A DNA stretch of 53,159 nt from a virus (Duplodnaviria; Caudoviricetes): positions 1 through 53,159 of the IMG/VR virus record IMGVR_UViG_3300024344_000019; one strand, 5' to 3'. A program made the position numbers and the translations under genes. Positions 5,410 through 22,168 of the stretch are shown here, one piece after another. Numbering within the stretch: position 1 is the stretch's first letter; each line of letters opens with the position of its first letter. Under the pieces are notes generated by a model. That model was not told where the DNA came from and searched no databases. It was given only the letters and a program-made list of their open reading frames with translations.

Positions 5410-6252
5410 TTACTTCTGGCCAGCACGAACTTTTTTTGCTAAATCTTTATCAGCACCGCCCCATGTTCCAGATGATTTAGTTACAAAACTATTTACTCTA
5501 GCAAATGCCCATTGTTGTTGAGTTGCACCAGGTCTATGTCCGCCTTTCCATGCAGCCATACCTCTATTGTAAACTTGTTTTAGTATCGAGTAAGGCATAC
5601 CAGTTTTCTTTGCCTTGTTTTGTAGACCTTTAATTGCTTCATCTAAATCAGCTTCTTTCATCGCCATTGCTTTTAAATGTTTTACTTTTTCTTTGATTTC
5701 GTCTTTAGGTCTTTCTAAATCAGGAATTGTTCTATCAATAGTTTCATTAATTTTAAATCTTCTTAATAGTCTATCTTTCATAGTTTCCTTATCTTTCTTT
5801 TTCTTCATTACAACTGTTGATGAATCATCACCTGTGCCTGCGACTGCTGTGCCTGTCGCATTTGCTGGGGTATCTTCGCCATACATTTGTTTATACTTTT
5901 TAGTATGTGTAGATGTTTTTGTTTTTGCTTTTTTATCGCCAGGTGCTGGTTTATAATCGTCATCATCATCTGATGGTTTATAAGTGCCTGCTTTTTTCTT
6001 AAAGAAAGCCGCTCTTTTCTTTTTTGTATCTTTATCTAAAGTCTTGTAATACTTTTTAGGTTGTGTACCTTTTACTTTTTTAACATCTTTATCTTGTGGT
6101 TGAGCATCCATATCTTCATACTTAGGACTTACTTTTTTAGTACCGTCTGCTCTAGGTATCAGACCTTTTGCTTTTAAATGAGCCTTGTCTGTAAATCCTG
6201 CTTTACCAGCTTTATATCTTTTCATAGCGTCTGCTGTATTAGGCGTTGGCAT
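5410..6252 (-). CDS. Lys-rich modular hypothetical protein with C-terminal DUF5824-like domain
   Basis: LKQVYNRGMAAWKGGHRPGATQQQWAFARVNSF resembles a conserved large-virus domain (from memory). Confidence 0.6.
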   Translation of the reverse strand: MPTPNTADAMKRYKAGKAGFTDKAHLKAKGLIPRADGTKKVSPKYEDMDAQPQDKDVKKVKGTQPKKYYKTLDKDTKKKRAAFFKKKAGTYKPSDDDDDYKPAPGDKKAKTKTSTHTKKYKQMYGEDTPANATGTAVAGTGDDSSTVVMKKKKDKETMKDRLLRRFKINETIDRTIPDLERPKDEIKEKVKHLKAMAMKEADLDEAIKGLQNKAKKTGMPYSILKQVYNRGMAAWKGGHRPGATQQQWAFARVNSFVTKSSGTWGGADKDLAKKVRAGQK

Positions 6253-7192: not shown

Positions 7193-7627
7193 TTAAACTA
7201 AATTCGCAAATACTTTGTAAGTGTTGTTGGGTTGTTTTTCCCAATTAAATTCTAGTTTTAAACCGCCTTCTTTTCTATGAGATATGCCATCACCGTTTTC
7301 AATATCACCATCACCAGATGTTGTATTGTCAGATGTTTTTCCATATCTTCCACCAAACTGAGAAACCTCTACTACTGATTTACCATTTTTACCTTCAACT
7401 TTAGGTATGGTGTAATTTAGACCAATAGTTGCCAGTTTCATCGCTAATTGGTGCATAGCAGCGTCTGGTTGTACATATTCTTGTTCAGCGATTGCACCTA
7501 CAAAAGCATTAACTTTTTGCAAAGATTCAGGATTAGCAACATCAAAAATAGCAACATTATCGTTCTCTACTGATTGATGAGCAAATCTATCTGTATATGC
7601 TTCGTTGTATTGTTTAAAGCTCTTCAT
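7193..7627 (-). CDS. Hypothetical protein, probable head-internal protein
   Basis: N-terminus MKSFKQYNEA resembles the T4 capsid targeting sequence. Confidence 0.6.
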   Translation of the reverse strand: MKSFKQYNEAYTDRFAHQSVENDNVAIFDVANPESLQKVNAFVGAIAEQEYVQPDAAMHQLAMKLATIGLNYTIPKVEGKNGKSVVEVSQFGGRYGKTSDNTTSGDGDIENGDGISHRKEGGLKLEFNWEKQPNNTYKVFANLV

Positions 7628-7787
7628 TTTTTTCGTCCTTCTTCTTTTTAGGTTTTTCTTCCTTTACAACAACTTCGATATTAGGATTTTCAGTTGTTAT
7701 TTCAGAAAGGACCGTATTAGAATCTTCGTATTGTTTTCTCGCTCTTGGCGATAAACTATTTAATTCTTCCTGTGTTAATTTGTCCAT
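7614..7787 (-). CDS. Small hypothetical protein (57 aa)
   Basis: Hand-translated MDKLTQEELNSLSPRARKQYE...KDEKNEEL, GGAG RBS, fills the gap between genes. Confidence 0.6.
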   Translation of the reverse strand: MDKLTQEELNSLSPRARKQYEDSNTVLSEITTENPNIEVVVKEEKPKKKKDEKNEEL

Positions 7788-7799
7788 TAATCTTTTCTC

Positions 7800-8033
7800 C
7801 TAAGAGGTTGCAATATCAAGTGCCTGTTGTTTTTCAGCAGGCATTGGTGCGTCATCATCTGCAATTTGTTTTAGAAACATATCACATTGTTGCATAGCAC
7901 CCGCTAAAGCATTCAAATTATTTTTCATACTAATAACCTTGACTTCACTTTCCTCAATTTGTTGTTTCACGGTTTGAAAGTCTTTTTCTAATTCAGATTT
8001 TCTCGTTTCAATTTGTTCTTTACTTATTGACAT
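7800..8033 (-). CDS. Small coiled-coil hypothetical protein
   Basis: Heptad pattern, GGAG RBS. Confidence 0.65.
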   Translation of the reverse strand: MSISKEQIETRKSELEKDFQTVKQQIEESEVKVISMKNNLNALAGAMQQCDMFLKQIADDDAPMPAEKQQALDIATS

Positions 8034-8046
8034 AATATCTCCATTT

Positions 8047-8074
8047 TAAATTAAGGAGGGGGCGAACCCCCTCC
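8047..8074 (-). terminator. Intrinsic terminator
   Basis: GGAGGGGG-TTCG-CCCCCTCC followed by TTAATTT. Confidence 0.75.
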
Positions 8075-8108
8075 CAAGTATTTTTCTAGTTACTTAACTA
8101 ATCAGTTA

Positions 8109-8660
8109 TTACTGGTCAGCAAAAGCAACAGCGGTGTCAGAAGCAGTGAAACCAGACACAGCGTAAACTGTACTAGAAACGCCTACAAGATTAATCTCGT
8201 ATGCCTCTGGTGTAGCCAAAGTAATTTTACTGTTGGAATCTCCATCAGAAAATACAGTATCAGTTGTTTGACCTGTTTGGTTGTTATCGTTGTGTTGCAA
8301 CGCACCTTTGAAAAAGATTGTGTTACCAGCAGTCTGGAATATATGAGATGAAGCGTCAGTCGCCGCACCGATATAAATGAACTTAAAAGTAAGTCCAGCA
8401 GAAGGTGTTGGTAATACATATGTTGAGTTCTGAGATACATCAACAACCATGTTAGTTCTACCTGCATTAGCAGCAGCAGTTAGAGTAGTTGATGAAGCGT
8501 CAGCCAAAGTAACAGGAGCTCTTAGAGCATTTTCCATCTCTGCGATTGTTACTTTTTTGTTTATCGGTGTTCCAGAAGGATCATCAACTACATGAAGTAA
8601 ATCTTCTCTTGCAGTCGCTGTTCCTAATGAAGTTAATGCCGTGATTTTTTTATCAGCCAT
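8109..8660 (-). CDS. Virion structural / fibre-like protein
   Basis: [10 protein letters not shown]...[14 protein letters not shown]-terminus typical of fibre or decoration proteins; Thr/Ala/Ser rich; late promoter upstream. Confidence 0.65.
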
Positions 8661-8778
8661 TGTTTGTTTTCTCCATTTAATTTAACCCCTTATGTATTCG
8701 GGGAATGTTAGCCCAGGCATTGAAGTTATCTCGCCAGGGATCAAGTGTATAGGAGGAACAATTTCCCCCTATACAAAT

Positions 8779-8786
8779 TATTTATA
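8779..8786 (-). promoter_or_regulatory. T4-type late promoter
   Basis: TATAAATA, intergenic. Confidence 0.8.
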
Positions 8787-8803
8787 AGACTTATATACTA
8801 CTA

Positions 8804-9994
8804 TTATGTAGTAGTTACGCCTTTAAGTATATTAGCACTACCAGAAGCAGAACCTGATTTAGCTTCTAATACTAAACCGTCAGCGTCAATAGTAAATTCT
8901 TCTGGTCTAAAGTGACCGCCTGAATTATCTTCGTTTTCGATAAAGCCATCAGCATCCTCTAATAATCCTACTCTACCGTCAACTGTATCAACACCAAAAC
9001 CAGTTCTCATCGCTTGAGTTCCAACAACACTTGTAGCGCCGTCAGCACCCTCAATTGTCATTGAGATACTATTCTGTTCAATACCTTCACCTGCGTCAGC
9101 AGAAAATAATAATTTAATATTATCTGCAACTGTAATTGGTTCTGAAACTGTGAATGAAGTTTGAGAAGCAACCGCTGTGATTGTTAATGTATTGTCTGTA
9201 CTGATTCCTGTATCGCCATCTTCGCCAGCAGTAATTGAAGCAGCAGGTGTTCCACCTTCGCCGTTTACTGTAACTACTTGACCAGTAGCAATTGTTCCTG
9301 ATACACCATCAACTGTAACTGTTGTTGAAGCAGTTGTGATTGCACCATTTACAACACCTGAAGCAGCAGATGAAGCGTCTAATACGATACTGTTATCTGT
9401 TCCTTGAGCAGAAGCTGTTTCTGATAGAATACCAGAAAAAGTTTCACTATCTGCTTGCATAGTTGCAGTACCATTTACATGAATAAAGTTGTCTGCAAAT
9501 CCAAGATAACCATTATCAGTAGTGTTTAATCTACCTCTGAATGTTAGTGTGTTTGTGCCTGAACCAGATTTGTATTGACAATTAACTGTATTGTCTGTTA
9601 CCATATCTGTTGCACCTATTTCATTTAGTGTAATAAATACCTTGTTTGTTATAGTGTTGTTGCTTGTTGCAGCCGCACTAGTAACTGTGATATTCTCGTC
9701 AAATGTTAGTACTAAATCAAAATCAGCCGCGTCTGCGTAAGCACCATCTGTCCAGTCAATAGACAGTAAGTTAGCTGACCTTAGTTGTGTACTCGATAAG
9801 TTTCTAATTGCTACCAAGATTTCAGGATCAGCACTTGTATTATCGTTACCAGTAGCAGCACTTGCTACGCCAGGTTGAAATACCCATCCTTTACTTGTTG
9901 CAGTTACAAACTCTCGGGAATATGACGAGTTAGAATCATTTGGCAAAGACTTTGGTCTTGCCTCAGTATCTACTGTTTTTCCCCATAAAGCCAT
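8804..9994 (-). CDS. Virion structural protein (beta-rich, Ig/fibre-like)
   Basis: MALWGK N-terminus, Thr/Gly/Asp/Ser-rich, AAGGAG RBS, GATAAATA late-like promoter at 10045-10052. Confidence 0.65.
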   Translation of the reverse strand: MALWGKTVDTEARPKSLPNDSNSSYSREFVTATSKGWVFQPGVASAATGNDNTSADPEILVAIRNLSSTQLRSANLLSIDWTDGAYADAADFDLVLTFDENITVTSAAATSNNTITNKVFITLNEIGATDMVTDNTVNCQYKSGSGTNTLTFRGRLNTTDNGYLGFADNFIHVNGTATMQADSETFSGILSETASAQGTDNSIVLDASSAASGVVNGAITTASTTVTVDGVSGTIATGQVVTVNGEGGTPAASITAGEDGDTGISTDNTLTITAVASQTSFTVSEPITVADNIKLLFSADAGEGIEQNSISMTIEGADGATSVVGTQAMRTGFGVDTVDGRVGLLEDADGFIENEDNSGGHFRPEEFTIDADGLVLEAKSGSASGSANILKGVTTT

Positions 9995-10050
9995 TTTAAT
10001 CTCTCCTTATTAATAAGTTGTTTAGTTTGTTAATTAACTATTACTATTTA

Positions 10051-10578
10051 TCAAAAACCAATTCTCTTAAGCTGAGAAATCGTGTTTGATGTACTTGTAT
10101 GTTCAATACCTATACCCCCAGCAGCTCTAAATTGTTGAACATTCTTTGAATAATCATCAATTAAGATTGCAGGTTGTCGTTTAATCGCACTACCTTTCAT
10201 AGCAAAGTTCTTTTTTTCTCTACGCCTTACAATGTTTATCATTGAATTTTGCGTATATCCTACTTCTTTTCGTAACCATCTCATCTTTCCTGGTATACAA
10301 TTAGGATCTTCTATACTATATGCTGATAAAATATGAGGATTGTACTTTCTTAAATATGACCAAAGTTGTTTACCATCTCTAGTCCAAGGCATATTTGCCC
10401 AAAAGTTCTTTGTTTTTCTTATAGATTCCCAATCTTGTCCGTCTCGCAAACCAACCCAATTTTGACCAGTTGCTCTTTTAGCAGCAAGAATGAAATCACA
10501 TAACACTCCATCCATATCAACATAGATACGAGGCATATCGCCTTTCGCTTCTCTGTAAAATTCTTTATAATCTCTCAT
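10051..10578 (-). CDS. HAD-superfamily 5'(3')-nucleotidase-like phosphatase
   Basis: Motif I YVDMDGVLCDF, ILSA, K, motif IV LIDD. Confidence 0.85.
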   Translation of the reverse strand: MRDYKEFYREAKGDMPRIYVDMDGVLCDFILAAKRATGQNWVGLRDGQDWESIRKTKNFWANMPWTRDGKQLWSYLRKYNPHILSAYSIEDPNCIPGKMRWLRKEVGYTQNSMINIVRRREKKNFAMKGSAIKRQPAILIDDYSKNVQQFRAAGGIGIEHTSTSNTISQLKRIGF

Positions 10579-10592
10579 AAGAGATTTTCCCC

Positions 10593-11234
10593 TTAATGTA
10601 GATTGCCGTTAGGTGTATTTTTACCTCCAGAAAATACCCCAATCTCTACATCAGGATTTACTTCTATTTTGGATTTACCTAAACTCATCTTTAGTTTCTT
10701 CTTATCAATTGAACCTTTTTCTTCTGGTTTGTTTTTAGAATTTTTATCTAATATAGCATTTGCAAGACCAGTTCTTAAAGGTACTTCACCAGTTTCTGGA
10801 TTTGGTTCAGGTTTTACAGTTTTATCTTTTTCTATTTTTAGTTCAAGTTCTAGTTTTTGAATTTTATCTTTAAGAGATTGTATTTCACTTTCGCTTTTAC
10901 CAGCATCTTTGTCCATAGCTCTGATTTTAGCAATCTTAACACCTGGGGCATTGTCTTTATCTATTGCTGGTATTTCTTTTTCTTCGTTTGTAGAAGGCAC
11001 TAAAAGATAGTCTCTTAATTTATTCATACTATTAGCTGCAATAGCAATCTTATTCATCCACCAACTAGGTAATGAATCTTCTGGATTCATGCCTTGTAGT
11101 TTAGACAACATCTGAGAAGCATCCTCAATTGCAGTCTTACATTGTCTTACAGCAGACGCCACATCTGTATGGCCATCTTCTTTAACCTGTCTTACTTCTT
11201 CGAGTGCTTCTTTAAATGTTTTATTATATTTCAT
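10593..11234 (-). CDS. Hypothetical protein, probable head-internal protein
   Basis: MKYNKTFKEALEE start; charged modular sequence. Confidence 0.6.
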   Translation of the reverse strand: MKYNKTFKEALEEVRQVKEDGHTDVASAVRQCKTAIEDASQMLSKLQGMNPEDSLPSWWMNKIAIAANSMNKLRDYLLVPSTNEEKEIPAIDKDNAPGVKIAKIRAMDKDAGKSESEIQSLKDKIQKLELELKIEKDKTVKPEPNPETGEVPLRTGLANAILDKNSKNKPEEKGSIDKKKLKMSLGKSKIEVNPDVEIGVFSGGKNTPNGNLH

Positions 11235-11235
11235 A

Positions 11236-13278
11236 TTATTTTTTTTCTACTAGACCTCTTGAAACTAATACTGCTTCTTCTAGTGAACCAGGTTTAGTTT
11301 GTAGATATCTTTTGTTAGTGCTTTCTTTTTTGTACATAGCGTTGATTTTTTTCATTGGTTCTTGCATAACAGGTTTGTCTTTTACTTTAGACATATCATC
11401 GCCACCACCATCTTTAACAGCAGCCCTTACATCTGATTTCATATAACCTGCAGCCATATCTTGTTTAGGGTCTTGCATAGTCATAGCATTCATTTTTTTA
11501 GGGTCTGTTACAGCATTCATCTTCATAGATGACATTGGTTGCATATCGTCATCACCAGTTTTCATTTCTTTTTTTGATTTCATATACATCGCTCTGATAG
11601 GCATTTTCATAGCATTCATCTTCATCATCTCTTGTGGGTTCATCATTTCTTCTACTTCTTCTTTTTTCTTTTTACCTTTTTCTTTGTAACCACTAGCAAA
11701 TGCAGCTTTTCTTTGAGCGTCTGAAGCAAAACCTTCTTTCATCGCCATTTCCATCTTTTTCATCATTTCTTTCTTCATCATCTCAGGCATTTTATCCATT
11801 TCTTTCATCATCTCTTTTTTCATCATTTCCATTTTCTCAGGATCTGTTTCTGCCTTCATCATCTCCATCTTTTTCATCATTTCTTTTTTCATCATTTCGT
11901 ATTGAGCGTTCATAGAACCATATTCTTTTAAATCTGTTTCATCTGCGATATCTTTTTCTAAAGTTTTTGCTTGTTTATCATGTGTCTTAACAGACTTTTT
12001 AAGTTGTTTGATAACAGGTTCAATAGTTTTTTTATCTTTATCGTCTAGTTCTTCTTTTTTATCTTCTTTATCTTTAATTGCTTTTTGCAATCCAGCAGGT
12101 AATTTCTTTTGTGCTGGTGTTAGTTCTTCATTCTTTGCAGTATGCATTCCATCTACATGCTTAAAGAATTTCTTTTTGTCAGCGTCCGTTTTCAGGTCAT
12201 CTAAGGAGTTAATCCCAAAGTCCTTCATGGCCGCTTTGAACTTGTCTTTATAAGTTGCCTCGTTCATGTTGTCTCCCTTTTGTTTTGATTCAGGTACAAA
12301 TTCTTCTTCTTCTATACCTAGTTGTTTTTTGACCATATTAGTTGCTGTTGCATACCTAACACTATCACCGTCTTTACCATATCTTTTAATAAAATCTTTT
12401 TTAGGCATATCGTCTGCCTTTTTGTGAACCATTTTAACTTGCGTTTTAGTCAAGTCTGCTTCTGGCACAAACTCATCTCGTATACCTAGTCTTTGTTTTT
12501 CTTTATCAATTTCTTTTTGAGTAAGCATTTCGCCTTGTTTGTCGTTTGCCTGTTTCATTCTACCTAGTTGAATTAACAAGTCTGAATATTTTGTAAATTT
12601 ACCCTCTTGCATATCTTCTCCTTGTGGGCATTCACAACCCTCTCCCTCACATCTAGGACAAGATGGATCAACACTCTCTTTTTGTTCGAATGTAGAACCA
12701 GCAAATTTTGATATATGATTTATTTTTGCGTTCTCTATTGCAGCTCTTGTAGGTGCATCCATATTAGCAATCATTTGTTTGACAGCTGGTGTTAAAGCAG
12801 AAGCAGGTTTATTCTTCCAGTCTTGTTTCATTCTCTCTAGTTGAGCGTCTGTAAAAGACCCTCTTAAATCGTTTATTTCGTTTATTAAATCTCCAAACAT
12901 TTCTTTAACTACACTTTCTGGTACACAATTAGGTACCATTCTATCGCCTTTCTTTTTAAGTCCGACTTGTTTATAACCAGTCCAACACGCCTCTTGTTGC
13001 AACTCATCTGCTTCAGCCATATCTAATGGCTTTTTAAAATCTGAATATTTTTTACCATGTTTCATAACTAGTTTAGACATAGACGCCGTTGATAAGAAAG
13101 GTATATCTGCATTTGCTAACTTCATAAGCATATCAGGCGAATACTTATTTAACATAGCATCCATTTTCTTAATATTATCCATAGATACTCTTTTACCTTT
13201 TAACGGTTCGTATTCTTTTTTAAGTTTTGTTAATTGTTGAACAGTAAACTCTTTTAATTCTTTAAATGATAGTGCCAT
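11236..13278 (-). CDS. Large modular Met/Lys/Glu-rich protein, probable head-internal/core protein
   Basis: MALSFKELKE start, ACWTGYKQVG...VPNCVPE module, CPRCEGEGCECP, EMMKK repeats. Confidence 0.65.
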   Translation of the reverse strand: MALSFKELKEFTVQQLTKLKKEYEPLKGKRVSMDNIKKMDAMLNKYSPDMLMKLANADIPFLSTASMSKLVMKHGKKYSDFKKPLDMAEADELQQEACWTGYKQVGLKKKGDRMVPNCVPESVVKEMFGDLINEINDLRGSFTDAQLERMKQDWKNKPASALTPAVKQMIANMDAPTRAAIENAKINHISKFAGSTFEQKESVDPSCPRCEGEGCECPQGEDMQEGKFTKYSDLLIQLGRMKQANDKQGEMLTQKEIDKEKQRLGIRDEFVPEADLTKTQVKMVHKKADDMPKKDFIKRYGKDGDSVRYATATNMVKKQLGIEEEEFVPESKQKGDNMNEATYKDKFKAAMKDFGINSLDDLKTDADKKKFFKHVDGMHTAKNEELTPAQKKLPAGLQKAIKDKEDKKEELDDKDKKTIEPVIKQLKKSVKTHDKQAKTLEKDIADETDLKEYGSMNAQYEMMKKEMMKKMEMMKAETDPEKMEMMKKEMMKEMDKMPEMMKKEMMKKMEMAMKEGFASDAQRKAAFASGYKEKGKKKKEEVEEMMNPQEMMKMNAMKMPIRAMYMKSKKEMKTGDDDMQPMSSMKMNAVTDPKKMNAMTMQDPKQDMAAGYMKSDVRAAVKDGGGDDMSKVKDKPVMQEPMKKINAMYKKESTNKRYLQTKPGSLEEAVLVSRGLVEKK
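11745..11900 (-). repeat. Low-complexity coding repeat (EMMKKEMMKKMEM)
   Basis: Repeated ttcatcat/ttccat units on + strand; EMMKKEMMKKMEM occurs twice. Confidence 0.8.
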
Positions 13279-14198
13279 TATTTTAACCTCGGATAATACT
13301 TTCTAACTAAAGCATTTCTTTTTGAATAATCAGGATCAGTTATGTGACCTCTTTGTTTATGTCTTTTATCAATATCTTCCATATCTTTAATTTCTTGTGA
13401 TGTACCAAACTCTTTTGCTAACATAATAGCATTTAAAGAATGGTCGTTCTCATCTTCGTTTCTATCAAATTCTTTTTTAGTAAATCTTTCTTCTAAGTTT
13501 TCAGCAACAACTTTTGCACCATAGAAGTTTTGTAAGTCTGTACCGATAGCATTAAGTTCTGCACCTTTGCCATCAACTTTCATTACTAAACCTTTTGCGT
13601 CTATTGTAAAACCATATTTTGCTAAATCAGTAGAAGCCTTTGACATTGTAGCCATGTCTCTAAAAGTAACAGTCATTTTTTTGTACTCTTTGATTGTTTC
13701 TTCTTTTAGACCTTTTGGTTTCATAAGAGACATATAACCTGTTTGATTGCCATACATTTTTTTAAATGTAGCAGGTTCTTTTTTACTGATTACACTCATT
13801 ACATATTCTCTAGGTTCTGTATCAGCGTTGTAAATATGATTACCTAATGCTACATAATCTTTTTTTTTCAATAAATCTGCTGACTTTTTATACATTTGAT
13901 AGTCCATACTATCTCGTCTAGTATTTGTTCTATCAATTTCTCTAGCAGCAACACTTTCTTCTAATTCTTCGTTTGCTCTTTTTAATGCGTTTGCAACATC
14001 TGGATGACTTGCCAAACCTTTTGCAATCTTCTCAATAGCAGCATAAGCACCTGAATAGTTTCCTTGTTTATATCTAGGATCGTTTAGAACACCATATGCC
14101 ATTTTGATTTGTTGACTTGAAAAGCCTTTATCTTCATTGACAGGATCTCTATATGACCTTGCTTCTTCTAAAGCTTCTCTCATTGTTTTTCTGTACAT
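13278..14198 (-). CDS. Modular hypothetical protein, probable head-internal protein
   Basis: MYRKTMREALEEA start; coupled to both neighbours by TAATG overlaps. Confidence 0.6.
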   Translation of the reverse strand: MYRKTMREALEEARSYRDPVNEDKGFSSQQIKMAYGVLNDPRYKQGNYSGAYAAIEKIAKGLASHPDVANALKRANEELEESVAAREIDRTNTRRDSMDYQMYKKSADLLKKKDYVALGNHIYNADTEPREYVMSVISKKEPATFKKMYGNQTGYMSLMKPKGLKEETIKEYKKMTVTFRDMATMSKASTDLAKYGFTIDAKGLVMKVDGKGAELNAIGTDLQNFYGAKVVAENLEERFTKKEFDRNEDENDHSLNAIMLAKEFGTSQEIKDMEDIDKRHKQRGHITDPDYSKRNALVRKYYPRLK

Positions 14199-16477
14199 TA
14201 TAGTTGTTCCTTCATTTTTTCAACTGCTTTGTCGAGTTCGACTTTCCAGTTTTCTTTAAATCTTTTCTTATATTTATCTATTGTTCCACCTTCATTCTTG
14301 AATTTTTGCAAGTCCTTGTCAGTTATTTTGTCTGTTGACCTTCTAAAATTCTGTATTGGTTGACCTGGTGTCATTTTCATTGTATGCTGAGCATACTCAT
14401 CTGTACCTATTTCGTAAGATTCGTCTGCTCTCATCTCTTGTTCTAGTCTATCTAATAGATTAATACTTCTTCTACCTTCTATTTTATCTTGATAATCTTC
14501 TTTTTTCATTTGTTTTGTCTTTTCTTTCATCTGGTTTATATACTTACGATATATTGCTGCCTCAGCAGTCTTACCCATTTCTCTTGCTCTCTGTTCCATT
14601 GCAACAGCAGCCTGAATTTTATGTGCGTGAGTTTTGCCAGAATTTTTAATTTTGTTTATACTTGCCTTTGCAGTTGCTACATCTTTAAATCCAAGACCTT
14701 GAATTGTGCCTTTTGGATTTTCATCTGTATATAAATCAGAATGTTTATCTGAACCTGCAGGTTGACCTTTTTTTCTAGGTATTCTTGGTTCTTCTTCTAA
14801 TGATTGTATATCATATAACCATGCCTTCTTAATAAGACCGTCACTCTCATATGAAACATAATTTGAGCCTCGTCTTACAATCATACCCATTGAACCGTCC
14901 ATGTGTTCAATTATATCACCAATATTAAATATTCTTTCTTGATGATATTCTTCTCTTAAATCGTTGTTTAAAAAGTTTGTAAAACTTTCTATACTTTCTC
15001 TTATACCCATGCCTTTTTTAACAGCATTAAATAATTCTTTTGTGTCTGAATCTGAAAGACCAGTTACACCTGTTTTAAAGTTTCTGTAATCATTGTTCTT
15101 TGCCATCTCTCTCATCTTTGAAGCTGACATTCCTGAAACACCTTCAGCATCTGGATCTCTTTCGCCAGAAGAAACTACTGTAACTTTTTTGTATTCATAA
15201 TCTTTGCCATTGTACTTATCAGCAAGAGATTGAAATTCTCGTATTCTATCACTACCTGCAACCATGATTACTTCACCATACATCTTATTATAGAACTTTA
15301 ATATCTCCATAAATGTTCTTTGATTACCACCTGCCGCCTGTATCTTATTTTGTGGGAACATCTTTTTCATAAACTTAACTTTTGTGTTTACATCTAATGG
15401 ATTTTTTCTTCTATCGGTTGAGGCGCTAGCATAAACAATGTGGTTAGCATTATTTTTTCTAGCTTGTGTAATCACTTCCTTCATAAGTTTAGCATGGCCT
15501 GTGGTAGGAGGGTTGAACCTACCAAAAGCAAAAATCAATTTGTTTGCCTTATCTAACGCCTCTCCGATTGCCCTCGTTTTACTTTGGGCAGATTCTACAT
15601 ATTTTAAAGAGTCTATCTCATCATCTGTAACCTTACCATCATCTAAAATCTTCTTACACTTTTTCAAAAAAGTTAAGTAGTGATATTTCTCTAACATTTT
15701 ATAAATTACATTTTTAGGTAATCTGTTTTTAATACTATAAGTTTTAATTTCATCTGGTGTCATATCTTTATCAAACGCAGCTCTTCTTTCAGCGTCAACT
15801 TCAGTACCGATGTCTGTTAAATCTTGTATATCTTTTTCTATTTCACCTAGTTTGTTACTAATTCTTTTTTCTAAATCTTTAATCTCACCAGGTTTTAATT
15901 CTGTTAATTCGTCATAGTCTATAATATCTCTTTTTAATTCACCTTTCAACATATCTATTTTGTCAACTTGTTTTTGAAAGTCTTTTAGATACAAGTTAGG
16001 ATTAAAATCAAATTCTTCTGGTCGTTTTTCAAATGATTGACCTTTAATATCAAATACAGCGTCTGCCTTTTTGTTTTGGTCATCATAAGTTTTTTTATCT
16101 GTAATAAAATAATAGTTAATAGGATGTTTTGTTCCTGGTATTAATTTACCTTGTATATTATCTGGATTACTAGACGCTAAATATTTCTTAGATAGTCTTA
16201 ATCTTTCTTCTTCTTGTTTTTCTTCTGGTACATCAAATAAAACATTGATATCTAAATCAGCGTCATTACGATATCTTTTTGTAAGTATAGAACCTATCAA
16301 ACTATAATCTAATATAGGATATTCTGATTCAAATTCTTTAAATTGTTCCGTGATTAATCTTAATACACTATCTTTAATTTTAGGATTATCTGTATCTTCA
16401 TCATCAAAAACACTAGGAGCATATGTGCGTCTAGGTATATCAATGATTGATTCTTTAAATAGTTTAAAACTTTTCAT
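14198..16477 (-). CDS. Fusion of Pol-beta-like nucleotidyltransferase and HIGH-type cytidylyltransferase-like domain with C-terminal modules
   Basis: GSILTKRYRNDADLDINV (GS...DxD); FGRFNPPTTGH, VAGSDR, GMSASKMR. Confidence 0.8.
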   Translation of the reverse strand: MKSFKLFKESIIDIPRRTYAPSVFDDEDTDNPKIKDSVLRLITEQFKEFESEYPILDYSLIGSILTKRYRNDADLDINVLFDVPEEKQEEERLRLSKKYLASSNPDNIQGKLIPGTKHPINYYFITDKKTYDDQNKKADAVFDIKGQSFEKRPEEFDFNPNLYLKDFQKQVDKIDMLKGELKRDIIDYDELTELKPGEIKDLEKRISNKLGEIEKDIQDLTDIGTEVDAERRAAFDKDMTPDEIKTYSIKNRLPKNVIYKMLEKYHYLTFLKKCKKILDDGKVTDDEIDSLKYVESAQSKTRAIGEALDKANKLIFAFGRFNPPTTGHAKLMKEVITQARKNNANHIVYASASTDRRKNPLDVNTKVKFMKKMFPQNKIQAAGGNQRTFMEILKFYNKMYGEVIMVAGSDRIREFQSLADKYNGKDYEYKKVTVVSSGERDPDAEGVSGMSASKMREMAKNNDYRNFKTGVTGLSDSDTKELFNAVKKGMGIRESIESFTNFLNNDLREEYHQERIFNIGDIIEHMDGSMGMIVRRGSNYVSYESDGLIKKAWLYDIQSLEEEPRIPRKKGQPAGSDKHSDLYTDENPKGTIQGLGFKDVATAKASINKIKNSGKTHAHKIQAAVAMEQRAREMGKTAEAAIYRKYINQMKEKTKQMKKEDYQDKIEGRRSINLLDRLEQEMRADESYEIGTDEYAQHTMKMTPGQPIQNFRRSTDKITDKDLQKFKNEGGTIDKYKKRFKENWKVELDKAVEKMKEQL

Positions 16478-16734
16478 TCTCCCCCATTTCCATTACCATT
16501 AGTACCGTTACCATTTGAACCATTACCATTAGTACCATTGCCGTTTGTATTATTGTTTGTGTTATCATCTGATTGTTGATTGTCTTGTCCATTACCATTT
16601 CGACCACCAAAATAAGGATAATATCTAGTTACTCCAGTAGGCACACACACTTGTAATTTTTTATCAAACCTATATCCTTCAGGACATTTCTTTGTTTGTT
16701 GTGCAGCCGTAATAAAACTTCTAAATGAATCCAT
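16474..16734 (-). CDS. Small protein with CPxGY..CVP motif and Asn-Gly repeat tail
   Basis: Start revised to MDSFRSFITAA (TAATG overlap); NGNGTNGNGSNGNGTNGNG tail. Confidence 0.6.
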   Translation of the reverse strand: MDSFRSFITAAQQTKKCPEGYRFDKKLQVCVPTGVTRYYPYFGGRNGNGQDNQQSDDNTNNNTNGNGTNGNGSNGNGTNGNGNGGE

Positions 16735-17972
16735 TATCCTTTTACCCAATCTTTTGCCATATTAAAGTTTGCTTTACTAAACTCTAATCTGTCAACTAGT
16801 TTAACAGCACCGCCTTTTTGAATTGCTACATATCCTTCAGGATTTGTAACTTTGTATCCATTACTTGTTCTCAAAAATGAACCGATACTTTGTATAGTAT
16901 TTAATCTTCTTAACAATACAGCTTTTGCTGATTGAAATGTAATATAAGTTGCAATCGCAAAATATAAACCGTCTCTATTTGCTCTTAATATTTTCATACC
17001 TGCTTCAAGTATTTCTTCATACTTTTGTTTTGCAGCTGGTGTTTTTTTACTATCTATTTCTTTTTTAATTCTGCCTCTAAAATAAACTTCAAAATTATTT
17101 GCTAACTTTGATGTATTTGTAATTGCTGTGCCTTGTCTTATATAAACATTAAAAAATGTTTTCATTTGAACACCTAGTGATAAAGGTCCTGTATCTTTTT
17201 TTAGTTTATCAACAAACGCACCTGCCTTATAAGCAGAACCCTCTGCCATTCTAATAATATTATCAAATGCTTTTTCTTCAGCAGGACTAAAAGCTGCACC
17301 ATCAGCTCTTTTATAAGTTGCGTCATCAAAGAATACATTTTTACTTTTTTTCAAACCTCTAACATTAGCACCAAATCCTGCCTTTAGTGTTGCCATTGTT
17401 TTGCCTGAATAAGATGTATGAAATATAATACCTATTTTTGCACTATTAACTTCTTTATATATGTTTCTACCAAGACCTAGAAAACCTGAACTTACGACAG
17501 GTACTGCATATGTAATAGTGTTAGGGGTAAATATGATTGATTTCTTACCTGCAACATTAGCAGTCTTTTTATCGCCACTTGCAAAGAGTAAATCGCCTTG
17601 TAAAATTCCTGAGATGCCTAGAGATGGTAAATATTTTAAACACTCTTTTAATTTATCAGCAAGAGCACCACCATGATTTCTACTGATATCAGCATTTGTA
17701 TAGTTTATTTTAGGTGTTTTATTAAAGATAGATTTAGTACCGACAAAGAACTTTCCGTTCTCAGGATTGATACCACAAAAGACCGCAGGTGCACCGTCCC
17801 ATTTTACTGAAACTGTGGATCCACCTGACCCTCCTTGTAACATCTGTTTGATAGACTTTAAAAACTCTATTGCTGTTTTAGCTCCACGACTTCCATTATT
17901 AATTATTTCGTCTTCCAGATGTTCAAGATGTGTGTTCTTATCTTCGATAAGATAATCTTGAAATTTCTGCAT
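16734..17972 (-). CDS. DUF6267-like conserved myophage protein with ATP-dependent ligase-like motifs
   Basis: KNTHLEHLED, VKWDGAP, LQGDLLF, PEGYVA, VKLVDR. Confidence 0.7.
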   Translation of the reverse strand: MQKFQDYLIEDKNTHLEHLEDEIINNGSRGAKTAIEFLKSIKQMLQGGSGGSTVSVKWDGAPAVFCGINPENGKFFVGTKSIFNKTPKINYTNADISRNHGGALADKLKECLKYLPSLGISGILQGDLLFASGDKKTANVAGKKSIIFTPNTITYAVPVVSSGFLGLGRNIYKEVNSAKIGIIFHTSYSGKTMATLKAGFGANVRGLKKSKNVFFDDATYKRADGAAFSPAEEKAFDNIIRMAEGSAYKAGAFVDKLKKDTGPLSLGVQMKTFFNVYIRQGTAITNTSKLANNFEVYFRGRIKKEIDSKKTPAAKQKYEEILEAGMKILRANRDGLYFAIATYITFQSAKAVLLRRLNTIQSIGSFLRTSNGYKVTNPEGYVAIQKGGAVKLVDRLEFSKANFNMAKDWVKG

Positions 17973-17994
17973 TTAGCACTCTCTCCATTTATAT

Positions 17995-18023
17995 ATTATA
18001 ACACTATTATTTATAATAGTCAA
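17995..18023 (-). promoter_or_regulatory. Composite promoter: sigma70 with late promoter inside the spacer
   Basis: TTGACT(18023-18018)-17-TATAAT(18000-17995); TATAAATA at 18015-18008. Confidence 0.7.
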
Positions 18024-18034
18024 GCATTATCACT

Positions 18035-19123
18035 CTATAAGTAGTTAAAATCCCCCATGATCCTAGTCGGATATCCGTCACCACCTTGTGTGTCTCTTAT
18101 ATTTACTTTCATTTTATACTTTGGTGTCTTAATTACCATATCAATTCTCTTACCTTGACCGCCTAATCCACCATAAAAAACTTGACAAGATAAAGGTTTA
18201 GTCGCACTCAACATATATGCCCTATCTACTTTGAAAGATTTGATACCAGAAGGCAATTTATGAATGACATGAAAACCATAGCCTAAACCTGATTGTAAAA
18301 ATTCTTCTAGATATTTTTTATTTACTTTACCAAATGTATTACTACTATATCCTTTTGCTAATTTACCATTAAATATTTGACAAAATGTTTTATTGTCAAT
18401 ACCAAACATCTTCAATAGTTTTAGACCATCTGGATTCTTAACCATACCACTCTGTATTTCATCTTTAGTTAATATCTTTTTAATACCAATATTAAAGAAA
18501 GTTGTAGTACCACCTAGTTTTAAACTTAAATAAGATACAACTTCATTTCTTGCATAACGCTCTACATTTTTATTTTTATGTATAGTTAAATCTGTTACTA
18601 CTGGACCAATATCTAAACTACCTGTTGGTGATGTTATGAAAGGTCCTGGTTTAAATGCTAAAGGTCTCTTTGTGTTTAAAGCACCTTCTTCTTTTACATT
18701 TAATGTTTTTAATTTTTTGAATTTATATGTTTTTGCTAAATCTTCTATAGCCTTTAACATAGCAGGATCTTCTACTTTATCACCACCCCAATAATTGTTT
18801 ATCTCTCTTGCAAAATTATTTTCAAAAAGATTACCTCTATTCGCAACACCTCTGTTACCAGCAGAACCAGCACCAAACTTAATTTTAACTTTATCTAATT
18901 TTGCTTCTTTTTGAATTGTTTTTAAATCAGCAGTACCTTGCAAATCTCTTGTTACATTTACTATACTTAATTTACCAGGATCAATATTGATTGGTATTTT
19001 TACTGTTTTATATTTTCTTTTGAGAAAAGAAAAAAGCTCAACTATCTCACCACCTTTTACAGCGTCTGATTTAACAACTTTTAATATGTCAGCTGTTTTT
19101 TCTGGGAATACAGTATATGCCAT
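18035..19123 (-). CDS. Hypothetical protein, possible PD-(D/E)XK-fold nuclease
   Basis: GNLFE ... VTDLTI ... YLSLK arrangement; basic protein. Confidence 0.5.
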   Translation of the reverse strand: MAYTVFPEKTADILKVVKSDAVKGGEIVELFSFLKRKYKTVKIPINIDPGKLSIVNVTRDLQGTADLKTIQKEAKLDKVKIKFGAGSAGNRGVANRGNLFENNFAREINNYWGGDKVEDPAMLKAIEDLAKTYKFKKLKTLNVKEEGALNTKRPLAFKPGPFITSPTGSLDIGPVVTDLTIHKNKNVERYARNEVVSYLSLKLGGTTTFFNIGIKKILTKDEIQSGMVKNPDGLKLLKMFGIDNKTFCQIFNGKLAKGYSSNTFGKVNKKYLEEFLQSGLGYGFHVIHKLPSGIKSFKVDRAYMLSATKPLSCQVFYGGLGGQGKRIDMVIKTPKYKMKVNIRDTQGGDGYPTRIMGDFNYL

Positions 19124-19162: not shown

Positions 19163-19930
19163 TTATCTAGGTATTGCTTTGCATTTAAACACTAGTGAAA
19201 CTCTGAATTTATCACTCTCTACTGCTCTTGCAACATGGGGTATTCTAGCGTCAAACAATACAACACGCCCTGCCCTTGGCCAATATGATTTTACAATGTT
19301 CATATTAGGGTCACCATTAAGACCATAAGGTGTATTGATTGCCATTGCTTTCATTTCATCATCTAGATTAGGTGTCCAAAACTCTATCGTACCACCATCT
19401 TCTGGTCGCCAGTCAGGTGTTAGATATACAATGACTGTATATTGGTCGCCAGTCCATCCATCAATATGAATACCGCCAGATTGACCTGCGTGATGTCCGT
19501 TAAGATAATGTCTTAATAGTTTTGCACCAGGATTTACTTTATCCCAAATCTCTTGTACCCAATCTTGTTCAATTTCATAATCAACTTCTTTAGTATCACT
19601 ACCACCTAAATGAATATGTTTATAACCAGGTGTCTTTGCTTCGTTCTTCATTTTTTCAGACGAATACCAACCGTCTTGCCAATCCATATTCATTACAATA
19701 TCATAGTATTTTTTTATATCATCTTCGGGTATTGTGCCATCAGACGCTTGTATGATTTTATGATAGTCTCCGCCTTTTAAAGCGTCAGCCTTTATTGTAT
19801 AAACTTTATCAGTTTTTGTATCTGTAATTTGAAAGTTCTCAGGATCTTCTGGATTGCCTATTGACTCAATATCAAACTTTTTTGCTTGTGAAGTAAAATC
19901 TTTTTCAGGATCAATTATCTTGGTGGTCAT
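19163..19930 (-). CDS. 2OG-Fe(II) dioxygenase
   Basis: HID, YLTPDWRPEDGG, GRVVLFD..IPH, R-x-S; start revised to MTTKII. Confidence 0.88.
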   Translation of the reverse strand: MTTKIIDPEKDFTSQAKKFDIESIGNPEDPENFQITDTKTDKVYTIKADALKGGDYHKIIQASDGTIPEDDIKKYYDIVMNMDWQDGWYSSEKMKNEAKTPGYKHIHLGGSDTKEVDYEIEQDWVQEIWDKVNPGAKLLRHYLNGHHAGQSGGIHIDGWTGDQYTVIVYLTPDWRPEDGGTIEFWTPNLDDEMKAMAINTPYGLNGDPNMNIVKSYWPRAGRVVLFDARIPHVARAVESDKFRVSLVFKCKAIPR

Positions 19931-20243
19931 TTTTTTCTTCTTCTTCTTCAAATAGTATCATGGTAATTAAACTATAAATTGCCATGTCCATTAAAGTGTC
20001 TTTGATACTTTCTTCTTTAAATTTAAATTCACCTTTTTTGATGAAGTTACTTATACGAGCATACTTATCGCCCATACGAACAACGGAACCTTGCCAAGCA
20101 GGTATGCCTGATAATTCTGACAATCTAAAATTAGCAAAGATATCTTCATTTGCACCATAATCATGTCGTTTTTTATCGTGTAATGTTTTAATTACATCTA
20201 TGATTTCATAAAATCTTTTGCTTTGTTTGTTTATATCGTCCAT
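19911..20243 (-). CDS. DUF1599 / nucleotide-modification-associated (MazG-like helical) protein
   Basis: KKRHDYG..DIFANF, RMGDKYARI, ESIKDTLMDMAIYS. Confidence 0.75.
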   Translation of the reverse strand: MDDINKQSKRFYEIIDVIKTLHDKKRHDYGANEDIFANFRLSELSGIPAWQGSVVRMGDKYARISNFIKKGEFKFKEESIKDTLMDMAIYSLITMILFEEEEEKNDHQDN

Positions 20244-20791: not shown

Positions 20792-22168
20792 TTATATTTT
20801 AAAGTCTGAGAATTGCCCCAGCCTTTTAAATTTATCATTAGACGATACTGAGTCTTGCCCACTATCAACTAAATCAGATTGAGCGTTTTGTTCTACATCA
20901 TAGAAACGCATTTTAGACCTATCGACACCAAGTATAAACTTTCGATTTACAGTTGGGTCGTTGTATCTATTTTTAAGTTGTTTAACCATTATCTGGCTTT
21001 TTTCTTCTAGTTCTTCACTTGATATCAAAGCAAACATAAAGTCTGCTGTTGCAGGAAGACCAAAAGATTCTGAGGTATCTTCTAACCCCACATCGCTACT
21101 TACAAAACCACCACGAGTAGTTTGTGTAGCAGAGAATATTGGAATATCATTTTCTACAGCAAGACCTCTTAATTCTTCAGCGATTGCCTTGATGTAAGTA
21201 TAACTGTTTACATTTGCACCAGACTTAAATCTAGATGAAGCACAAATATTTAGATAGTCAACAAATACAATATCTGGTTTAAATGACTTTTTCAATGCAA
21301 GTTCACTAATCAAATTTTTAAAGTGACCTGTGTGAGCAGTAGCAGTTGGATATTCTTTGATGATTAATGTGCCTGTTGTCTTACTTTGTAGTTTGTTAAT
21401 CTTTGTCTCATACATTGTATATGGTAGTTCTTCTAAATCACTCATGCCAACATTTAATAAATTAGCGTCTATTCTTTCAGCGATTCTTTCTTCAGCCATC
21501 TCCATAGTAATATACAAAACATTTTTACCTTGTAGTAATACAGACGAAGCAAGGTGTGTCATAAACATTGTTTTACCTACACCAGTACCTGCAAGACAAA
21601 TATTTAAAGTCTTACTCGGTATACCACCTCTTGTAATCTTATTAAAAAATTCTAAATCTAATTCTAATCTTTCTTCTTTCTTTTTATAGAAATCATATCT
21701 CTCTTTTGATTCTTGTAAATAATCATGCCCAACTTTTTGGTCAAAAGACACACCCAAAGCATTTGATAATAATTCAGGTAAATATTCTGGTGTATGGTTC
21801 TTATCTTTACCATCTATAATTTGAATACCATTTAAAATAGCATTATGTATAGAACGGTCTTTACAAAACTTTTCTGTTGTCTCAACTAACCAATCTAGAT
21901 TAACTGGTTCTGGATTTAAAGTAGATAGTATATCAGTAACCTTTTTATATTCATCTTCATTGATACTCTTATTACTATTAATTTCAATTGATAAAGATTC
22001 TTTTGTCGGAAGATTATTATACTTGTTTACAAACTTATAGATTTCAGTAAATAATACTTTTTCTAATCTATCTGAAAAATATTCTTCTTTGATAAAAGGC
22101 AAAACCTTTCTACAATACTTTTCATTATGAATTAAATTACGAAGTGCTGTTCTTTCAATTCTCTCCAT
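20792..22168 (-). CDS. 41: Replicative helicase (gp41)
   Basis: Walker A AGTGVGKT, YITMEMAEE, FVDYLNIC, SESFGLPATAD, KQLKNRY. Confidence 0.97.
   Translation of the reverse strand: MERIERTALRNLIHNEKYCRKVLPFIKEEYFSDRLEKVLFTEIYKFVNKYNNLPTKESLSIEINSNKSINEDEYKKVTDILSTLNPEPVNLDWLVETTEKFCKDRSIHNAILNGIQIIDGKDKNHTPEYLPELLSNALGVSFDQKVGHDYLQESKERYDFYKKKEERLELDLEFFNKITRGGIPSKTLNICLAGTGVGKTMFMTHLASSVLLQGKNVLYITMEMAEERIAERIDANLLNVGMSDLEELPYTMYETKINKLQSKTTGTLIIKEYPTATAHTGHFKNLISELALKKSFKPDIVFVDYLNICASSRFKSGANVNSYTYIKAIAEELRGLAVENDIPIFSATQTTRGGFVSSDVGLEDTSESFGLPATADFMFALISSEELEEKSQIMVKQLKNRYNDPTVNRKFILGVDRSKMRFYDVEQNAQSDLVDSGQDSVSSNDKFKRLGQFSDFKI

Follow-up and report, generated by a model that had tools for sequence, protein, structure and literature searches.

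We analysed a stretch of 53,159 nt (hereafter the window), which is the whole of IMG/VR record IMGVR_UViG_3300024344_000019 and is estimated to be 29% complete. The fragment comes from a marine T4-like myovirus and has a G+C content of approximately 32%. All its genes lie on the minus strand, as do all the window features described below. The closest cultured relative by DNA is the Pelagibacter phage HTVC008M (Kyanoviridae), followed by cyanomyoviruses. Pfam scans identified a T4 replication and recombination set (UvsY, UvsW, gp46/47-like proteins, the clamp and clamp loader, RegA, gp43 polymerase, UvsX, gp41 helicase, primase and NrdA). The module considered here lies between the genes for the primase (1653-2666) and the gp41 helicase (20792-22168) and contains a gene for a 412-aa protein of the family DUF6267 (16734..17972), and a gene for a 759-aa protein that joins a Pol-beta-type nucleotidyltransferase domain to a HIGH-type adenylyltransferase domain (14198..16477). 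The motifs and predicted fold of the DUF6267 protein point to a divergent polynucleotide ligase.

The 412-aa protein (pI 9.8) matched PF19782 (DUF6267) over the entire profile (positions 1-376 of 376; E 1.4e-123, 413.4 bits against a cut-off of 27). It also matched phrog_455, which covers both the DUF6267 and the HIGH halves of the module. A preliminary description of the locus had reported four motifs at 16734-17972 in the order expected of covalent nucleotidyltransferases, and we located all of them: motif I, KWDG (residues 57-60, 17793..17804), in which Lys57 is the predicted adenylate acceptor; motif III, QGD (residues 125-127, 17592..17600), on strand 123-130 of the structural model; and the sequence motifs IV, EGYV (residues 379-382, 16827-16838), and V, VKLV (residues 390-393, 16794-16805), the latter 11 residues from motif IV. 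A basic, all-helical insert (residues 225-360, pI 9.9, 16893..17300) splits the nucleotidyltransferase core into front and back halves, with modelled helices at 230-259, 266-279, 287-308, 312-331 and 333-358. One helix (19-45) precedes the core, and the protein ends approximately 20 residues past motif V.

We assessed conservation in an alignment of 98 stand-alone DUF6267 members with 35-55% identity to the query (about 40%). Twelve positions in the front part of the protein (H18, K57, D59, G60, G67, P70, K80, D127, Y155, G181, H185 and T186) and four towards its end (E379, G380, K391 and F398) were invariant in 98/98 sequences, with Q125, G126 and R395 kept in at least 90% of the rows. Motifs III, IIIa, IV and V occur in canonical order, and D127, F148/Y155, E379-G380 and K391 were invariant or at least 90% conserved. 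Since the motif positions are invariant across the 98 members, the KWDG lysine, the acidic residue of motif III, the EG of motif IV and the lysine of motif V are fixed in the family, and the expectation that the predicted catalytic residues (K57, D127, E379, G380 and K391) would be conserved in homologues was borne out. The family is very large, with 2579 relatives at E <=1e-3 among 1.84 billion representatives of clusters at 50% identity, and at least 8000 DUF6267 clusters in a database clustered at 90% identity.

The AlphaFold2 model of the DUF6267 protein, built from the 98-row alignment, has a pLDDT of 92.6 and a pTM of 0.90, and only residues 1-10 fall below 50. A VIA-align search of 48,161 representative chains, made independently of Foldseek, was dominated by ligases, which occupied 14 of the 15 highest rows; NgrRnl was placed at Z 8.3 (rmsd 4.0, 186 residues aligned), REL1 at 8.2, Trl1 at 7.9 and 7.8, T4 Rnl2 at 7.6, the archaeal Rnl3 at 6.8, T4 Rnl1 at 6.7 and DNA ligases at no more than 6.5. 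When the top 1000 Foldseek matches were re-scored with VIA-align, 49 of 50 rows were ligases, led by NgrRnl (Z 8.6, with 185 residues aligned at an rmsd of 3.8), then REL1 at 8.2, T4 Rnl2 at 7.7, Trl1 at 7.5, T4 Rnl1 at 7.1 and DNA ligases again at 6.5 or below. These alignments span model residues 9-405, yet only approximately 185 residues are aligned. The case for a ligase fold is made because the list of matches is so specific and the motifs are invariant, and on these two grounds the ligase fold proposed in the preliminary description is retained for the predicted model. DUF6267 has the motif I, the motif order and, as modelled, the fold of the covalent nucleotidyltransferase superfamily, and no sequence or profile homology to a curated ligase family was found.

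The top structural match, NgrRnl (Rnl5; PDB 5cot, 6vt1), is covered over chain residues 140-339 and has motifs I, III, IV and V in the same order as DUF6267, including the motif I lysine, at approximately 10% identity and with no link at the sequence level. Unlike NgrRnl, DUF6267 has a 136-residue helical insert in the core, an Asp in motif III and a motif V with a single lysine, and only a helix precedes its core, where NgrRnl has an N-terminal OB-like domain. T4 Rnl2/REL1 and T4 Rnl1/Trl1 lie within approximately 1.5 Z of NgrRnl as matches. Rnl1 and Rnl2 carry a C-terminal helical domain, which, like the N-terminal OB-like domain of Rnl5, is not present in the model of DUF6267. Nor does the model contain an OB-fold domain or motif VI, as motif V at residues 390-393 of 412 leaves no room for them. 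The ATP-dependent DNA ligases (T4 gp30, Chlorella virus, LigI/III/IV) share the nucleotidyltransferase fold at Z 6.5-5.2, below the RNA ligases, and differ from DUF6267 in having the OB domain and motif VI. A kinase is paired with a ligase in Trl1 and in T4 Pnkp and Rnl1, and one DUF6267 relative (P0181) is, like Trl1, fused to a P-loop kinase. To our knowledge, no Rnl1 or Rnl2 system has a HIGH adenylyltransferase partner.

The 759-aa protein consists of the Pol-beta nucleotidyltransferase domain, a helical region, the HIGH adenylyltransferase domain, a small beta domain and a helical C-terminus. The minimal Pol-beta-type domain (residues ~20-160, 15998..16420) carries IGS at 61-63 (GS 62-63) and DADLD at 72-76 (16250-16264), which supplies D72, D74 and D76; the two fit the hG[GS]-x9-13-Dh[DE]h pattern of the superfamily. 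The HIGH domain (residues 310-495, 14993..15550) carries FGRFNPPTTGH at 318-328 (15494-15526), with TTGH at 325-328, and MSASKMR at 450-456 (15110-15130), with SASKMR at 451-456. In Pfam, CTP_transf_like (PF01467) scored 26.1 bits against a cut-off of 21, and NTP_transf_2 (PF01909) was just below threshold at 20.3 against 21. The protein also matched phrog_3041 and phrog_395, both named 'cytidyltransferase', and PF01909 is found in 48-58% of the members of its atlas neighbours. Among relatives, the Pol-beta residues G62 (31/31), S63 (27/31), D74 (27/31) and D76 (29/31) were conserved, as were the HIGH positions G319 to H328 in 44-46 of 47 rows.

The AlphaFold model of the fusion has an overall pLDDT of 76.5, with domains at 85-95. 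In VIA-align, NMN/NaMN adenylyltransferases made up 14 of the top 17 rows for the HIGH domain (Z 13.0-10.2, including NadM-Nudix and the NadR chains 8x7f at Z 10.4 and 6gye at Z 10.2), and PPAT scored Z 12.2. Foldseek gave 103 matches at E <=1e-3, among them PPAT at E 3.7e-6 and NadD at E 1.8e-5. The NMNATs (NadM, NadD, NadR) and PPAT (CoaD) share the (T/H)xGH and S-x-S/T-x-x-R signatures conserved in the fusion, at 10-18% identity, whereas the HIGH domain of the fusion sits in a 759-aa protein together with the Pol-beta domain, the beta domain and a helical tail. As judged from the model, the HIGH domain is an adenylyltransferase of the NMNAT/PPAT branch. Within that branch NMNAT and PPAT are tied to within 1 Z, and the NCBIfam NMNAT models fall far under their cut-offs, the top row being nadR_NMN_Atrans at a very weak 22.8 bits against 341. 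The first residue of the HIGH signature is Thr (TTGH), as in PPAT, and not His. The phage family of these HIGH proteins is called an NMNAT homologue in a passage of one published study (PMC10665884). The common label 'glycerol-3-phosphate cytidylyltransferase' was rejected, with cytidylyltransferases at Z 9.2-7.6 placed under the adenylyltransferases.

For the N-terminal domain, VIA-align returned the 'putative nucleotidyltransferase' 1ylq_B (Z 8.0, rmsd 3.0, 90/93 residues, model residues 39-144), in a list filled by the HIGH domain that barely sampled the other parts of the protein. This domain is, by its predicted structure, a minimal Pol-beta nucleotidyltransferase, conserved though weakly scored. 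CCA-adding and oligonucleotide-synthase functions, which the preliminary description had raised, were set aside for it, the sole structural match from the whole-protein model being this minimal nucleotidyltransferase, and nothing in our analysis points to CCA addition or oligonucleotide signalling. The fusion of two superfamilies is confirmed at the level of conserved motifs and predicted folds. Its position just downstream of the DUF6267 gene stands in that it is the next large gene, but a small ORF of 91 or 86 aa lies between the two. Complex prediction for DUF6267 with fusion residues 305-560 gave 0.35, 0.00 and 0.02 in separate runs and returned no verdict.

We additionally noted a 280-aa DUF5824 protein (5410-6252) that matches positions 477-677, the C-terminal third, of phrog_3041 'cytidyltransferase'. 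In HTVC008M the corresponding tail is fused to the HIGH enzyme; the window thus encodes it as a gene of its own, approximately 8 kb away. Proteins of the module are labelled 'ribonucleotide reductase A' or 'NrdB' in the S-MbCM25 and metaG-MbCM1 records, and phrog_4808 is named likewise, which looks like a propagated annotation error.

We investigated the linkage of these genes in 80 IMG/VR loci that encode a DUF6267 relative, with ORFs labelled by phmmer and home-built HMMs, and with downstream counts restricted to the 37 loci with at least 5 kb of downstream DNA. Typically, gp41 is followed by one to several unknown genes and then by DUF6267; a small ORF and kinases may come next, and HIGH, with or without Pol-beta, stands last. 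A gp41-like gene was found in 53/80 loci. Downstream of DUF6267, a HIGH gene was present in 29/37 loci (with one more, L088, identified by Pfam), a kinase in 16, a Pol-beta domain in 15 and an NT5C-like gene in 11. The start of the HIGH gene lies no more than 100 nt from the DUF6267 stop in 17 of the 46 HIGH-carrying loci. Of 21 ORFs with a Pol-beta domain, 19 carry HIGH in the same protein, and the other two are truncated at contig ends.

Direct fusions were also identified. Among 34 proteins picked for length from 150 listed representatives, eight join DUF6267 to CTP_transf_like, four at the N-terminus and four at the C-terminus; one (P0181) joins DUF6267 to an AAA_33/zeta-type kinase, and the remaining 25 are without a second Pfam family. 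Kinase, Pol-beta and HIGH domains occur in a single 913-aa ORF in L027, and HIGH-kinase fusions in L088, L084 and L062, in the last of which the HIGH half was recognised by a home-built HMM. In HTVC008M, a zeta/AAA_33 kinase lies between the DUF6267 and HIGH genes, and 3/9 of the kinase ORFs scanned contain an adenylate-kinase domain. Across marine T4-like phages, the ligase-like and HIGH genes thus lie next to each other or form a fusion, and either may come first. In a divergent lineage (L058, L075, L086, L088 and L089), we observed an island of genes between DUF6267 and a HIGH-zeta-kinase fusion gene, containing methyltransferases, NTP_transferase, an APH-type kinase, and DHQ-synthase-like, SDR, glycosyltransferase and IscA/NifU-like genes.

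DUF6267 was identified by tblastn in 471 phage records, 456 of which are named Synechococcus, Prochlorococcus or Cyanophage. Among 185,579 species genomes we found 67 DUF6267 loci, nearly all in aquatic metagenome-assembled or single-amplified genomes; 27 of the loci measured at least 9 kb, and a gp41-like and/or HIGH gene was present in 23 of these. The loci have the appearance of phage contigs and so provide no separate view of the family in a cellular setting, and the DUF6267 family is, on the evidence at hand, phage-borne. Because the window record is estimated to be only 29% complete, the absence of other ligases was examined in complete relatives. In all four complete Kyanoviridae genomes considered (HTVC008M, DSL-LC02, Syn9 and S-CAM7), each of which carries DUF6267, we could not find a match at E <=1 to PF01068, PF09414, PF01653 or PF09511. 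A gp30-like query returned 2674 phage records, with Synechococcus outside the ten commonest labels (the tenth having 63 records), against 371 Synechococcus-phage records that carry DUF6267. The gp30 gene is listed as quasi-core, in a group many members of which are absent from at least one marine cyanophage, in the relevant passages of PMC2993671. DUF6267 thus occurs in the replication block of gp30-less phages, yet it is also found beside a gp30-like gene in the genome of the Vibrio phage EniLVp02, which encodes gp30-like, Rnl1-like and Rnl2-like proteins as well as the DUF6267 and HIGH pair. The EniLVp02 DUF6267 protein retains KWDG, EGFV and VKLV, and its HIGH gene comes next. The EniLVp02 gene L005:7035-7961, recorded as 'DNA helicase', encodes NPPTAAH and ISATRMR and looks like the HIGH partner.

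The N-terminus of the DUF6267 protein is the decapeptide MQKFQDYLIE (17943..17972), which resembles a T4 capsid-targeting sequence with an L-x-E end of the prohead-protease type. In T4, IPII and IPIII start with MKTYQEFIAE and IPI with MKTFKEF. As described in the pertinent section of PMC9026906, the first 10 residues are enough for head loading, with residues 4 and 7 important for targeting and residues 8 and 10 for processing, and gp21 cleaves after L/I-x-E. The DUF6267 sequence has F4, Y7, L8 and E10, followed by DKNTHLEHLED, and so has the layout of the T4 tag (aromatic residues at 4 and 7, L/I at 8 and E at 10) that is found in the gp21-cut IPI-III and Alt cargo. The decapeptide is also the sole disordered part of the model, and some homologues lack it and start directly at the conserved KN.HLEH core. 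The strict pattern was found in 33/98 sequences of the DUF6267 alignment and in 19/79 DUF6267 ORFs of the related loci, compared with 7/68 HIGH, Pol-beta or kinase ORFs, 0/52 gp41 ORFs and 12/601 other neighbouring ORFs.

Nine proteins of unrelated kinds in the window, encoded within 7193-17972 and at 27827-29206, start with M-x-x-F/Y-K/Q-x-F/Y/L...E: DUF6267, the small ORF, the fusion (MKSFKLFKE), the 306-, 680- and 213-aa proteins and the NT5C-like protein described below, a 144-aa protein (MKSFKQY), and a RimK-like ATP-grasp and Zn_protease protein (27827-29206). The similarity of these starts suggests that a large set of proteins may be packaged. Unlike the T4 internal proteins, which are small and basic, the cargo encoded in the window would be enzymes of 400-760 aa. 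Virion proteomes offer some comparison: a 'cytidylyltransferase' homologue and its neighbours (ORF154-156) are reported for S-CREM2 in part of PMC10665884, whose authors state there that carry-over cannot be excluded, and the same homologue with a neighbour (ORF140 and ORF139) is reported for S-SZBM1 in part of PMC9146016.

The listed ORFs from 17972 down to 10051 overlap or abut, with a largest gap of 14 nt. The small coupled ORF between DUF6267 and the fusion (16474..16749) can start at a TTG (16749), giving 91 aa, or at an ATG (16734), giving 86 aa; the ATG overlaps the DUF6267 stop (TAATG). Its product, when started at the ATG, has an N-terminus of MDSFRSFI, and it carries two Cys pairs (CPEGY...CVP) and a long, Asn/Gly-rich (N/G/T)-repeat tail; it has no Pfam family above cut-off, and phmmer identified relatives in 5/80 related loci. 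Between the fusion and the NT5C-like gene are three coupled genes (10593..14198) for basic, Lys/Glu/Met-rich proteins of 306, 680 and 213 aa, which have no Pfam family, share N-termini of the form F/M-(K/R)-E-(A/L)-L/K-E, and have relatives that recur downstream of the module in related loci. Lysine makes up 18% and methionine 10% of the basic 680-aa protein (11236-13278), which contains runs such as MMKKEMMKKMEMMK and whose PHROG matches are weak. The run closes with a gene for a 5'(3')-deoxyribonucleotidase-like protein of the NT5C-type HAD family (10051..10578), with a DMDGV motif and an N-terminus of MRDYKEFYRE. It matched phrog_2643 '5'-3' deoxyribonucleotidase' at E 8.3e-26, and Pfam NT5C just under threshold, at 23.6 bits against 24.8. 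The HAD phosphatase that had been placed in the same run is therefore a real NT5C-type gene in a series of coupled ORFs, and 'same run' is a fair term for it because the genes overlap or abut, but it lies three genes beyond the fusion and outside the interval that had been assigned to the module.

The sole sizeable intergenic gap at the head of this run (17973-18034, 62 nt) precedes the DUF6267 gene. It contains a predicted promoter-like element, TTGACT-17-TATAAT with TG (17995..18023), a sigma-70-like match at 11/12 positions that scored highest in the 11-kb region scanned, and the T4 late-promoter-like sequence TATAAATA (18008-18015). The seven matches to TATAAATA in the window (8779, 18008, 19129, 32827, 33361, 33623 and 52724) are all on the minus, coding strand, and those that were compared with the gene map sit just ahead of gene starts. 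As a late-promoter marker the sequence was rejected, as it is not enriched (7 found against 11.6 expected by chance), and neither it nor the sigma-70-like match is evidence of function. Directly upstream is a gene for a 362-aa protein (18035-19123) that matches phrog_8438 at E 3e-89 and no Pfam family; relatives of it precede DUF6267 in only 6/80 loci (phmmer), and in related loci this slot is usually held by an uncharacterised gene of 350-500 aa. The window also contains four 2OG-Fe(II) oxygenase genes (19163-19951, 42605-43195, 49537-50109 and 50075-50698), the first of them adjoined by a DUF1599 'nucleotide modification associated' gene (19911-20243).

From the motifs and their conservation, the predicted folds, the linkage and fusions, and the failure to find known ligases in four related genomes, we infer catalysis, substrate, cofactor and packaging as follows, and lean modestly towards DUF6267 being a new OB-less, divergent family of polynucleotide ligases that acts with nucleotide-handling partners. 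Lys57 of KWDG would take AMP from a nucleotide donor and transfer it to an end bearing a 5'-phosphate, after which the enzyme would seal nicked or broken RNA or DNA, with the basic helical insert (225-360) perhaps standing in for the missing nucleic-acid-binding domain. DUF6267 would work as a unit with the downstream 759-aa protein, of which the NMNAT/PPAT-like domain may make or recycle an adenylylated cofactor or intermediate, and the minimal Pol-beta domain may nucleotidylate some acceptor. In relatives, the AAA_33/zeta-type kinase and adenylate kinase would join this set, as the NT5C/HAD phosphatase of the same run may do here, and together they would amount to a kit that heals and seals ends and supplies its own nucleotides. 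Some or all of the set could be loaded into the head and delivered with the DNA, as the capsid-targeting-like N-termini suggest. The preliminary description had suggested nucleic acid end healing or an NAD-related pathway; by analogy, the AAA_33/zeta-type kinase fusions in relatives would fit the former, and the NMNAT-like predicted fold would fit a link to NAD.

Several observations weigh against such a ligase. We know of no ligation pathway that needs a HIGH adenylyltransferase, and Pfam scans identified no kinase among the genes of the window. Ligase motif III usually has Glu, where DUF6267 has Asp127, and motif V of DUF6267 has a single lysine. By VIA-align's own note, a Z near 8 is middling, and fold scores give no residue-level view of the superposition of Lys57 on a catalytic lysine. 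Foldseek against the PDB gave no match at E <=1e-3, with DNA ligases in the top rows at E ~0.09. Neither phmmer nor the 98-row profile retrieved a ligase from the PDB sequences, where the sole matches at E <0.01 were low-complexity similarities to the ribosomal protein eS8. Comparison by hhalign with the Rnl1-like protein of EniLVp02 gave E 0.25 over 19 columns (motifs IV-V), which is unusable as proof; the register, which is not significant, sets DUF6267 motifs IV-V on EGWV...FKL of that protein, with the short motif IV-V spacing of the Rnl1 type. Against the EniLVp02 Rnl2-like protein, hhalign gave E 0.02 but out of register, and this was also discarded. Pfam finds DUF6267 alone in the 412-aa protein, with no match to PF01068, PF09414 or PF09511, and NCBIfam finds nothing. 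Sequence methods are thus blind to any ligase kinship, and this could explain the family's continuing status as a DUF; a full-text literature search returned no paper on DUF6267 and none assigning the family a function. EniLVp02 retains the pair beside three known ligases, so the pair is not simply a substitute ligase. As regards packaging, the tag of the fusion (F4, F7, E9) lacks the L/I-x-E site and is only a partial match, and the S-SZBM1 DUF6267 protein, which we mapped to ORF141, does not appear in the text of PMC9146016, supplementary tables aside, so the packaging of DUF6267 itself is without virion support.

Bacterial LigA takes AMP from NAD+, and DUF6267 might similarly draw AMP from NAD+ or a related dinucleotide, which the NMNAT-like enzyme would remake from NMN and ATP. 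Adenylate kinase would then clear the AMP freed by sealing, or the pair might mainly keep NAD+ available early in infection. We consider this NAD-coupled scheme rather unlikely overall. The NMN/NaMN adenylyltransferases are the best structural matches of the HIGH domain and nadR_NMN_Atrans its best, if very weak, NCBIfam row, but PPAT, within 1 Z of the NMNATs and at the head of the Foldseek list, means that the substrate of the HIGH domain is not pinned down, and the Thr of TTGH is the residue of PPAT. That DUF6267 and HIGH are fused in either order speaks for a metabolite common to both enzymes, the module includes adenylate kinases in relatives, and the HIGH and P-loop-kinase fusions recall the layout of NadR, itself among the fold matches. 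The kinases of relatives, however, match AAA_33/Zeta_toxin, and AAA_28, the NadR kinase type, was matched only weakly (E 1.8e-4 to 4.8e-4) and on adenylate-kinase ORFs. The single-lysine motif V presumably resembles that of LigA, but no domain Ia of the LigA type was seen, and PF01653 was unmatched in all five genomes searched. We know of no NAD-depleting defence that has NMN as its product.

A fuller version of the preferred ligase reading would combine these elements into a head-delivered, self-supplied sealing machine, in which an OB-less ligase uses a dinucleotide from the fused or adjacent NMNAT-like enzyme and, joined in relatives by kinase, phosphatase and adenylate-kinase helpers, mends phage or host nucleic acid before phage genes are expressed. 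We think this combination improbable as a whole. In the literature searched, we found no description in phages of a ligase coupled to a cofactor synthase, or of such enzymes as cargo.

Alternatively, the lysyl-NMP might serve not to join ends but to cap or tag RNA or DNA ends, or to nucleotidylate a protein, with the HIGH and Pol-beta domains as further modifiers in an injected host-takeover set. The fold also serves capping enzymes, and 1p16 (Z 4.9) and the snurportin cap-binding domain (Z 5.2) are listed among the matches; ligases, however, score 3-4 Z higher than the capping enzymes and make up 49 of 50 rows. The atypical residues of motifs III and V hint at altered chemistry, and the model has neither an OB domain nor a recognisable RNA-ligase accessory domain, but the strongly basic surface and insert would fit polynucleotide binding. 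The acceptors of minimal 1ylq-type Pol-beta transferases are commonly proteins or small molecules, the pair persists in EniLVp02 despite its three ligases, and capsid-targeting-like tags are common to unrelated enzymes of the run; against this, the kinase fusion P0181 is a classic heal-and-seal pairing. We judge a non-joining role to be doubtful.

A replicative role, in which DUF6267 is the Okazaki-fragment DNA ligase of the Kyanoviridae in place of T4 gp30 and its nucleotide-enzyme neighbours are incidental, would suit its position within the replication block (gp41 helicase to gp61 primase/NrdA, with gp41-like genes in 53/80 loci), the lack of any searched ligase family in 4/4 complete Kyanoviridae genomes, the scarcity of gp30-like matches under the Synechococcus label, and the quasi-core status of gp30, a group often missing in marine cyanophages according to the portion of PMC2993671 concerned. 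It is nonetheless very unlikely, as repeated HIGH and kinase fusions are not expected of chance neighbours, RNA ligases (Z 8.6-7.1) fit better than DNA ligases (<=6.5), the OB domain is missing from the model, EniLVp02 has gp30 yet retains the pair, and a capsid-targeting-like tag would be odd for a replisome enzyme.

The dominant T4-like phages of Synechococcus, Prochlorococcus and SAR11 carry the very large DUF6267 family. If it is an active ligase, the ligase gap in these phages would close, and the family would represent a new ligase architecture, in which a helical insert lies inside the core, the OB domain is missing and an adenylyltransferase is the fixed partner. Capsid loading of the set, if it occurs, would add to the enzymes that phages are known to inject.

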